Assembly (NCBI GenBank): GCA_951406725.2
Contig: OX597817.1
Coordinates: forward strand, 71,114,001 to 71,178,000
Origin: Octopus vulgaris
Lineage: Eukaryota
Reading direction: 5' to 3'
DNA length: 64,000 nt
This document shows, piece by piece, positions 29,296-56,016 of the stretch (position 1 is the first letter of the stretch; every line of letters starts with the position of its first letter). Below the pieces are notes generated by a model. That model searched no databases, was not told the DNA's origin, and saw nothing but the letters and a program-made list of their open reading frames with translations. The translations under genes and the position numbers were made by a program.

Positions 29296-29526
29296 ACCTT
29301 TTATCAATGAGTGGATTTGGTAGGTGGAAACTGAAAGAAACTCATCATACTCTTTTATTCTTTTACTTGTTTCAATCATTTGACTGTAGCCATGCTGGAC
29401 CACCACCTCGAAGAGTTTTAGTCGAACAAATGGACCCCAAGACTTATCTTTTTTAAGCCTAATACTTATTCTATCGGTCTTTTTGCCGAACCGCTAATTT
29501 ACGGAGGCATAAACACACCAATATTG

Positions 29527-29604
<78 letters not shown>

Positions 29605-29610
<6 letters not shown>

Positions 29611-29893
29611 ATAAATATTAGGGAATAAATCCAAATTTACAGGGAAAAAAATCAGATTTAGGATTAAATCCAATTTTATAGTAAAATATTATAAAATATT
29701 ATTAGAGACAAAACCACTATTTTGCAAAACAAACAAGGAATTTGAAACTGACTTATTGGAAGTCCACCTGAAGATTGTCGATCAAGACAAGAAACAATTG
29801 TAGTGGCGGTTTTTTTGACTATTTATTAAAATTTTATGTATTGATTAAGTCTTTCCTTGTTTGTTTTGCAAAATAGTGGTTTTGTCTCTAATA

Positions 29894-30268: not shown

Positions 30269-30704
30269 CGTTTTGGGATTTGGTTTGCAAGATTCTTTAT
30301 GTGAGTTCGTATGTTGAAACAAGTAAACCCTAAAATTCACTCCATAATTGCGTACGGGCATATGGCGTAGTGATTAAGAACGCGGGCTACTAAACCCAGT
30401 ACGTATTTCTTAAAAATCTGGTTGCCATTCTATTGGTAACTTTAGCCGAACCGAGTGTCAATTACAAGGCTCACAGGCGTGGCTGTGTGGTAAGACGCCT
30501 GCTTCCCAACCAAATGGCTATTGAAAAGGTTGCAAGACGCAACGAAAATCTTAGGAAAATAAAAATAAGAAATAAGTGGAAATTTTACCGGTGGGTGTGT
30601 CAAATTATAAGGTACAAAAAGAAAATGACTCTCCTCAGGCACAACAGAATATGCTTCAACATACGAACTCACATAAAGAATCTTGCAAACCAAATCCCAA
30701 AACG

Positions 30705-30774
<70 letters not shown>

Positions 30775-31212
30775 CATACACCAATATTGGTGTGTTTATG
30801 TCTCCGTAAATTAGCGGTTCGGCAAAAAGACCGATAGAATAAGTATTAGGCTTAAAAAAGATAAGTCTTGGGGTACATTTGTTCGACTAAAATTCTCCGA
30901 GGTGCTGGTCCAGCATGGCTACAGTCAAATGATTGAAACAAGTAAAAGAATAAAAGAGTATGATGAGTTTCTTTCAGTTTCCACCTACCAAATCCACTCA
31001 TAAGGCTTTAGCTGACCCAGAGGTGTAGTTGAAAACACTTGAATAGGGTAACACGTAGTGGGATTGAACTGAAAATCATGTAGTTGGAAGCAAGCTTCTT
31101 ACCATACAGCCATATATATGTAAAATGCATTAATAAACATGTACGTATGGTTCATTCATTATTTACACTATTTACAATTGATGGATATTTGTCCTCATCT
31201 TGCTTGTTGTTT

Positions 31213-31256
31213 ACACAACGTTTCGGCTGATATACCCTCCAGCCTTCATCAGGTAT
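31213..31256 (-). ncRNA. Minimal type-I hammerhead ribozyme (intact core)
   Basis: Minus strand ATAC-CTGATGA-A-GGCTG-GAGGGTATAT-CAGCC-GAAA-CG-TT-GTGT; palindromic ACGT stem III. Confidence 0.85.
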
Positions 31257-31572
31257 CTTGGGGAAATTTTGCCACCTCAGAATAAGAGTAGACGAACATC
31301 GCAAAGCTGTGACACGAGGAGATATTGATAAATCGGGTATAGATGATCATGTATGGAAAAATGGAGACCACCTCCCTCTGTGGGATACAGTTAAAATAAT
31401 AGAGAACACCACTAGAAAATACGAAAACTAAAAGAAGTAGCACACATGCTAAAACACAAAACCCCCTAAGCAGACCGAGTGCAGATATGAATAGCATATA
31501 GGAACCGGTATTAAGGATGAATAGGAAAATATTAGATTTATAAACCCTAAAATTCACTCCATAATTGCGTAC

Positions 31573-31647
31573 GGGCATATGGCGTAGTGATTAAGAACGC
31601 GGGCTATTAACCCCAATATTCCGAGTTTGATTCCAGGCAGTGACCTG
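31573..31647 (+). promoter_or_regulatory. tRNA-like Pol III A/B-box cassette inside the PLE 3' region
   Basis: GGGCATA-TGGCGTAGTGA (A box)...GAGTTTGATTCC (B box)...GACCTG, followed by (AAT)n. Confidence 0.65.
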
Positions 31648-32244
31648 AATAATAATAATAATAATACTAACATCGAAAATTACTTTAGGAATGAGAACCC
31701 AGGTTCGAAATTTCCCCAAGACACCTCATGAAAGGTGGAGTTAACAACAGACAAGATGAGGACAAATATCCGTGAAATGTAAATAATATACATAATTCCT
31801 CATCTCTTAAATATAGAATTGCATGTACGTATGGTTGTATTCTTTTATTTTTACTAGCTTCAGCCATTGGACTTGAACTATACTTAGGTATCACCTTAGA
31901 GGGGTTCTTTTTTTTGTTCATCAAATCGACTCCAGGTCACTTTTAATTGCCTAAACCGGTAACTTACTGGGTTGTAAACAAACTTACATCGGTTGTCAAC
32001 AAGCGGTGACAGGTAAATACAAACTCAAATGCACACATACATGTACATATGCTTTTATACTTTTTCTAGTTCCGACCATCGGTCTGCTGTCAGGCTGTGG
32101 CATCGTCTTCAAGAAATTAACCGATCCATTCTATAGACTTACTTTTGTCTGGTACTTAAATTCATCTATCTAATGGGCGTTCTTGCATGACTGACATGGC
32201 AGTCAACGACACAAGTCATGAAATATCTAAGCTGTAAATCTTGA

Positions 32245-32590
32245 GCATGAAAGCGTATGGCTCAGTGGTTAGAGCGTCGGGCTCACAATCATGAGATAGT
32301 GAGTTCGATTCCCGGACTGGGCTGTGTGTTGTGTTCTTGAGAAGACACTTTTATTTCATGTTACTTCTGTTCGCTCGGCTGCAGAAACGAGTTGCGATGT
32401 CACTAGTTCCTAGCTATATCGACCTTTACTTTCCCTTGGATAATATCGGTGATGTGGAGAGGGGTGACTGCTATGCATGGGCGACTGCTGGTCTTCCATA
32501 AGCAACCTTGTCCAGACTTGTGTCACGGAGGGTAACTTTCTAGGTACAATCTCATGGTCATTCATGACCGAAGGAGATCTTTACCCTTTT
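32245..32590 (+). mobile_element. tRNA-derived SINE family 3
   Basis: TGGCTCAGTGG A box, GAGTTCGATTCC B box, core GTGTTCTTGAG-AAGACACTTT, tail CTTTACCCTTT. Confidence 0.8.
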
Positions 32591-55831: not shown

Positions 55832-56016
55832 TAAAGTTAATCCAAACATGAACAAAGAGAAGACACAACAACGCGAGGACGTGGAACAAGTATAATGTTA
55901 TTGGACGCTCAGGAAAGAAAGAAGGAGGATTTACCGTTTCGAGCGGCGCTCTTCGTCAGAAACATAGAAAAAGGAAAGATCCAAGGAAGAGAAGACGGAA
56001 AAAGAAAATCGCCAAC

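Follow-up and report, generated by a model that had tools for sequence, protein, structure and literature searches.

The closest described counterpart of the octopus element reported here is PAc, a Penelope element of Anolis carolinensis. In the available text of the PAc study (PMC11167929), as in the octopus family, a single ORF encodes a reverse transcriptase (RT) with a C-terminal GIY-YIG domain, a pseudo-LTR (pLTR) overlaps the start of that ORF, a hammerhead lies within the first codons, and copies carry inverted 5' arms. Both also possess a pair of 3' end sites, separated by about 30 nt, within an AC-rich stretch. For PAc, the same text reports two internal sites at which reverse transcription starts, a template that spans the pLTR-ORF junction, and hammerhead cleavage that is dispensable. 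Unlike the octopus family, PAc is not described there as carrying a tRNA-derived head. The PLE promoters treated in the available portions of PMC8557442 and PMC3846280 are of the Pol II type, and the passages on rotifer Penelopes in the latter mention palindromes at pLTR 5' ends but no tRNA.

Pol III promoters mark non-coding parasites such as SINEs, TRIMp3 and SM-alpha, while coding retrotransposons are considered to rely on Pol II (available text of PMC10886601). In the schistosome repeats SM-alpha and Sj-alpha, a Pol III-type promoter is followed by a hammerhead, as the probable one is in the octopus unit. However, according to the accessible parts of PMC6765202 and PMC8490949, the schistosome repeats are non-coding, arranged in tandem and cleaved in vitro, whereas the octopus unit forms the terminal repeat of a protein-coding element, occurs dispersed and is copied without being cut. 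The TRIMp3 elements Cassandra, Helenus and Ajax likewise have a small-RNA-derived Pol III promoter in their terminal repeat, for which capture of a SINE has been proposed, but these are non-autonomous LTR elements, whereas the octopus head sits in the repeat of an autonomous one; the text at hand of PMC10886601 argues that the autonomous partners of TRIMp3 must use Pol II. Animal non-LTR retrozymes, as non-coding PLE pLTR derivatives with type-I hammerheads, are similar too, but they form tandem units each with its own hammerhead, whereas the octopus copies are dispersed and either single or inverted (2 of 88 in tandem); neither a tRNA nor a promoter is mentioned in the retrozyme text available (10.64898/2026.07.22.740005). 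Hammerheads go unmentioned in the accessible text of an octopus repeat annotation (PMC13282606), and no report of a Penelope with a Pol III or tRNA-derived promoter was found in searches of the openly accessible literature.

Here, we describe a Penelope family of Octopus vulgaris with a tRNA-derived head in its terminal repeat. Judging from comparisons among its copies, this head probably serves as an internal Pol III promoter and thereby fixes the 5' end of the RNA from which copies are made. If true, a Penelope with a tRNA promoter in its terminal repeat would unite a LINE and a SINE in one sequence and would provide a direct path from Penelopes to promoter-plus-hammerhead elements like SM-alpha, while the translation of PLE RNA and the purpose of the hammerhead would become testable questions. 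Thousands of annotations in the octopus genome as "SINE" or tRNA-like represent Penelope ends.

The insertion in the window

The window, i.e., the whole 64,000-nt stretch of DNA that was analysed, contains the element at 31138..31836. As a sequence-only reading of the window had proposed, this is a single insertion bounded by an exact 15-bp target-site duplication (TSD), the left copy of which lies at 31138..31152 and the matching right copy at 31822..31836 (a direct repeat, to which no strand applies). The rough probability of such a repeat arising by chance is about 2e-5, and flank repeats of at least 9 bp were found around 17 of 52 other insertions as opposed to 1 of 52 control flanks. Positions within the family are numbered from the first base of the head (+1, window position 31573) on a script-built consensus, which is without a 3-nt stretch at +174 that is present in most copies.

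The other parts listed in that reading were recovered as well. The insertion opens with an inverted pLTR arm on the minus strand (31158..31269), which sequence comparison with the family places at +133..+241 and which is likely a fold-back product. In minimal hammerheads, helix III is nearly absent. The arm holds an intact motif match of this minimal kind, a putative type-I hammerhead on the minus strand (31212..31258) with its predicted cut after 31217. Specifically, it is made up of the core CTGATGA (31252-31246), a stem II of 5 bp, GAAAC (31224-31220), a loopless palindromic helix III and stem I, following the motif definition in the available text of PMC4209133. Rfam scans of the window region, L118 and L315 called neither a tRNA nor a hammerhead in any of them. 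On the plus strand, the arm is followed by a 5'-truncated GIY-YIG endonuclease tail (31270..31543; stop at 31541-31543) that contains frameshifts; the same stretch, taken from a long copy, aligns with the endonuclease region of an anole Penelope (E 6e-22). At 31555..31572 (plus strand) lies an inverted and degenerate repeat of the head's first ~18 nt, likely the stub of an old fold-back, and the predicted start site falls near 31567-31571.

The tRNA-derived head itself (31573..31647, plus strand) and the (AAT)6 that follows it (31648..31665, plus strand) correspond to the tRNA-like A/B-box unit and (AAT)n of the earlier description. Each box carries one mutation in the window copy, namely G18 to A in the A box (31580-31591) and C56 to T in the B box (31625-31633). 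Across the family, (AAT)n varies in length and is often interrupted by other repeats. Finally, the sense pLTR contains the start of the ORF (31691..31821, plus strand; ATG at 31691), which in the family extends across the hammerhead as far as the long 3' end, and a broken hammerhead (31708..31760, plus strand). Besides the deletion noted earlier, here a loss of 23 nt between 31739 and 31740, this hammerhead has a substitution in its core. Because its sense arm begins at -306, inside the ORF, the window copy derives from a long template. Its head cannot drive the intact hammerhead, since both boxes are mutated and that hammerhead lies on the opposite strand. The window insertion is a dead, 5'-truncated fossil and no source of new copies. 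A second, separate fragment of the family (30324..30401, plus strand; about -32..+46, 96% identical) is no free SINE either, as it includes upstream Penelope sequence.

The Penelope family and its head

The family consensus, built from 105 pieces, has an unbroken frame of 783 aa that encodes an RT together with a C-terminal GIY-YIG endonuclease. A Pfam search matched RVT_1 and not GIY-YIG, and the endonuclease region aligns with an Anolis PLE protein. The RT is 40% identical to an Anolis Penelope protein over 264 aa. No Zn-finger linker between RT and EN was seen in the consensus protein, unlike in a second Penelope family of the same genome (L285-L314), which has a Cys/His linker and a hammerhead without the tRNA head and which served as a control; we take this second family to be Neptune-like. 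The pLTR passes directly into the ORF and represents its 5' leader plus first codons. The ATG is at +107, upstream of the hammerhead and with the head ~100 nt ahead of it, and an N-terminus similar to the one that the hammerhead encodes is kept in related proteins. In the 2.8 Gb of genome searched, the minimal motif of this predicted hammerhead gave 2,048 exact 34-mer matches. The 3' ends of copies fall into two clusters inside the first codons (+220-235 and +250-259), which match the two internal start sites given for PAc in the available text. Inverted arms accompany the pLTR in 53 of 88 head-picked insertions, and tandem copies make up 2 of 88, with few head-to-tail pairs and no long arrays seen. 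The pLTRs of Penelope/Poseidon elements are marked by partial tandem or inverted copies and an optional tail of 30-40 nt, and the octopus family conforms to this pattern. By its ORF, pLTR and hammerhead, the family is a high-copy PLE of the Penelope/Poseidon type. A scan of viral contigs found no relative.

The head belongs to this family. Among 29 top-scoring copies picked by the ORF tail, 26 have the head directly after it, and the remaining three break off before reaching the head. Conversely, in the 29 top-scoring copies picked by the head, all run on into (AAT)n and 27 into Penelope sequence. The tRNA-like box thus lies between the ORF end and the hammerhead family-wide, an arrangement that the sequence-only reading had left to a genome comparison. 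That reading had also named an alternative, in which the head was an independent SINE insertion into the window copy alone. The head does resemble a neighbouring SINE head at 32250-32325 (~70%; score 76 versus 27 +/- 4 for shuffles), but an independent insertion is scarcely credible and was rejected: 26 of 29 other copies have the head at this position, the head's junction is covered by contigs from four runs bearing four different organism labels, and no free-standing SINE version turned up, the Penelope end being reached in 27 of 29 head-picked copies. One ancient capture in the ancestor of the family is likely, and the SINE head at 32250-32325 is possibly a relative of the donor.

A regular expression for the A and B boxes missed the family's own head, and an HMM of 10 host tRNA genes was used for box detection. 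Against this model, the consensus head scored E 2.8e-5, above 500 of 500 shuffles, and its nearest host tRNA is Arg(TCG) among the few isotypes sampled (7 isotype labels). The head was rejected as a tRNA gene, with no ARAGORN call in the window and no cloverleaf fold; ARAGORN found nothing in the 34 loci scanned out of 79 related ones. Among copies, non-CpG mismatch is 3.2% in the B box versus 5-7% elsewhere, in favour of a Pol III promoter. The A box, with a mismatch of 11% that is affected by junctions, is no better kept than its surroundings, which counts against one.

Where copies begin

Copies of the family pile up at the head. Exact 19-mers were counted genome-wide: the ORF tail gave 787, the sequence just upstream of the head 878 and the head itself 4735. 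After correction for match rate, the arms number roughly 1,750, 3,200 and 20,000, respectively. The corrected counts describe a ~1.8-fold rise over 110 nt upstream and a ~6-fold step over 60 nt at the head. For the ends themselves, loci were taken in genome order from contig C1. Among the first 100 hammerhead matches listed, 70 loci were scored by their 5'-most end: 30 ended at -19..+8, 14 further upstream, 9 within the head, 10 at the microsatellite and 7 downstream; when only loci reaching +8 are counted, 30 of 44 end at -19..+8 (binomial P 6e-23 at a loss of 0.3% per nt). A head-picked set, comprising 90 loci among the first 100 matches listed and 88 after removal of the near-duplicates L233 and L235, gave 58 ends at -19..+8, 20 upstream and 10 inside the head. 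Ends scored at -19..-14 are mostly perfect fold-backs, with the true end near -7. Among full-length copies, L204 and L220 start with the head, a further one starts within it, and another two reach upstream as partial tandems. When copies were picked by the ORF start, at least part of the upstream head was kept in just 5 of 30, and 2 of these 5 extend past the head, which speaks against the promoter reading. From the boundary to the A box downstream is 9-13 nt, approximately the spacing at which transcription from a type-2 Pol III promoter starts.

The main rival to a Pol III start, and a serious one, holds that the head is a passive relic of a captured SINE or tRNA piece, that transcription is by Pol II, and that the ends reflect stalling of the RT or snap-back of the cDNA at a bulged hairpin around +1. 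It must be taken seriously because the hairpin at the head start is the strongest within -600..+259 (-9.1 kcal/mol over 24 nt, -13.1 over 36 nt), exactly where the 5'-end peak falls, and because rotifer pLTRs have palindromes of their own; indeed, as far as the available texts of PMC8557442 and PMC3846280 go, Pol II-type promoters and palindromes at pLTR 5' ends are both described for other Penelopes. Inverted copies also cluster at the boundary far more than direct ones (43 of 48 versus 12 of 27, P 6e-5). A comparison hairpin at +111, where 5 of 70 ends fall, is an unfair control, since it is far weaker (-0.3 versus -2.1 kcal/mol as DNA). Nevertheless, direct insertions, i.e., those with no inverted arm, cluster too: of the 27 reaching +8, 12 have their end at -7..+6 (P 1e-9), or 9 of 24 when three possible stubs are set aside (P 8e-7). 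Perfect fold-backs account for 24 of 154 head contexts, yet in none of the 154 did fold-back follow copying of the template to -14 or -18, where pairing would be longer. In addition, a similarly strong hairpin within the head (-8.3) halts few copies, and the upstream arm of the hairpin reads as a degenerate version of the head in inverted orientation, suggesting a former RNA end at this point. Stalling also leaves the absence of T runs described below unexplained. All told, we regard a hairpin-induced stop as unlikely.

Cleavage by RNase P could also place an end at +1, if a longer RNA were cut there on a tRNA-like fold, and +1 is among the most frequent single ends (7 of 88). However, the acceptor stem and cloverleaf are absent, and in direct copies template bases are retained as far as -3 and -4, which makes such processing very improbable.

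Two sets of junctions were seen in passing. L128 and L138 are tandem pairs: a fragment that ends at +107/108 is succeeded by a head whose first base is +1, as expected of a template jump at the 5' end of an RNA. Elsewhere (L145, L153, L164, L168, L169, L172, L183, L184, L191, L197 and L207), three recurring foreign 3' ends are joined at (AAT)n and sever the head; these presumably belong to Dong/R4-type LINEs that target (TAA)n.

Short and long copies

Among head-bearing insertions, there are about 3 short copies for every long one, and the short ones show slightly less divergence at non-CpG sites (4.3% versus 5.8%, P 0.012). Together with the promoter boxes that they carry, these figures would suit a separate non-autonomous SINE/retrozyme, consisting of head, (AAT)n and hammerhead, that is transcribed by Pol III, self-cleaved and mobilised in trans like SM-alpha. 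The sequence-only reading had envisaged such a hybrid, with Pol III driving a short self-cleaving RNA. Its Pol III component receives indirect support from the 5'-end pile-up; the hybrid, in the form proposed, finds none. No diagnostic variants that sort short from long copies were found (nearest-neighbour test P 0.17), and since variants are common to both no separate SINE lineage is discernible. Nor do the short copies have a body and tail of their own; their sequence and variants are those of the autonomous pLTR, shared with ORF-bearing copies, and the repeat supplies the autonomous ORF with its 5' leader and first codons. Short copies also read intact through the hammerhead's cleavage position, so the template behind them had not been cut. 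With 2 of 88 insertions in tandem and no long arrays, the copies also differ from what would be expected of minimal hammerheads, which act as dimers (available text of PMC4209133), and in PAc, cleavage is dispensable and the template needs ORF sequence beyond the start sites (available text of PMC11167929). A separate SINE/retrozyme seems to us quite improbable, and some secondary copying may have proceeded from short copies.

Because lineages are shared, the cut site is spanned and the PAc template crosses the pLTR-ORF junction, the simplest source of the short copies is the 5' end of the element's own RNA. They look like by-products of the Penelope element, with the head as that element's own promoter. 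In the mechanism that we propose, Pol III would start ~2-6 nt ahead of the head's +1, and the element's enzyme would prime reverse transcription internally, like that of anole PAc. Priming in the 5' repeat would give rise to ~260-nt SINE-like copies, often folding back into inverted arms, while priming in the 3' repeat would yield longer, randomly truncated copies such as that in the window. Copying would be independent of the hammerhead.

T runs and the full-length RNA

A bolder and more tentative proposal is that Pol III makes the whole 2.7-kb coding RNA from the captured tRNA promoter, in which case this RNA would have stayed clear of T-run terminators, be translated without a cap, and be the source of tens of thousands of SINE-like copies of its 5' end. 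Such full-length transcription is less certain than a Pol III-defined 5' end and, on the sequences compared, is possible rather than probable. Host tRNA genes end in T runs. In the octopus family, no run of four T (T4) occurs in the 2,389-nt body or in the head plus tail (2.65-kb consensus), an absence with P 0.038 by synonymous shuffling and P 0.007 under a composition model. The head-less Penelope family of the same genome has 12 runs of T4 or longer in 2,305 nt, at a T content of 26% versus 22%. T4-free ORF stretches were also found in 3 of 28 related loci of at least 1.5 kb, two of the three with T-rich UTRs and no head; since these related stretches are also free of T4, the T-run data support the Pol III reading moderately.

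Among the listed reads of three unstranded RNA-seq runs from one study, no pile-up of ends was seen, and 57-61% extended into unrelated sequence. Reads over the element are mostly host transcripts that contain copies of it, and none of the public runs containing the stretch is recorded as RNA.

Related and neighbouring repeats

A distant, intact tandem Penelope with a period of 2,791 (L315:2821-3020) combines, in the order seen in the family, a unit resembling A and B boxes, an AAT-rich stretch and a hammerhead, and its protein shares 38% amino-acid identity with that of the family. The box-like unit is weak (HMM E 4.3, 5 of 500 shuffles, 1 of 79 loci), its likeness to the Penelope head is not significant, and there are 2 T4 runs per unit (P 0.17). 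This element may be an instance of the same Pol III solution.

Other repeats of the window were noted alongside. An inverted repeat of 294 nt (29307-29600 and 30708-31001) is 97% complementary, (TA)n included, and a hammerhead-like motif with its core near 29768 lies in a different repeat at 29610-29860. Finally, a third family of short hammerheads lies near 55940 on the minus strand and also in L065 and L105; its flanks are T-rich, and it has inverted arms.
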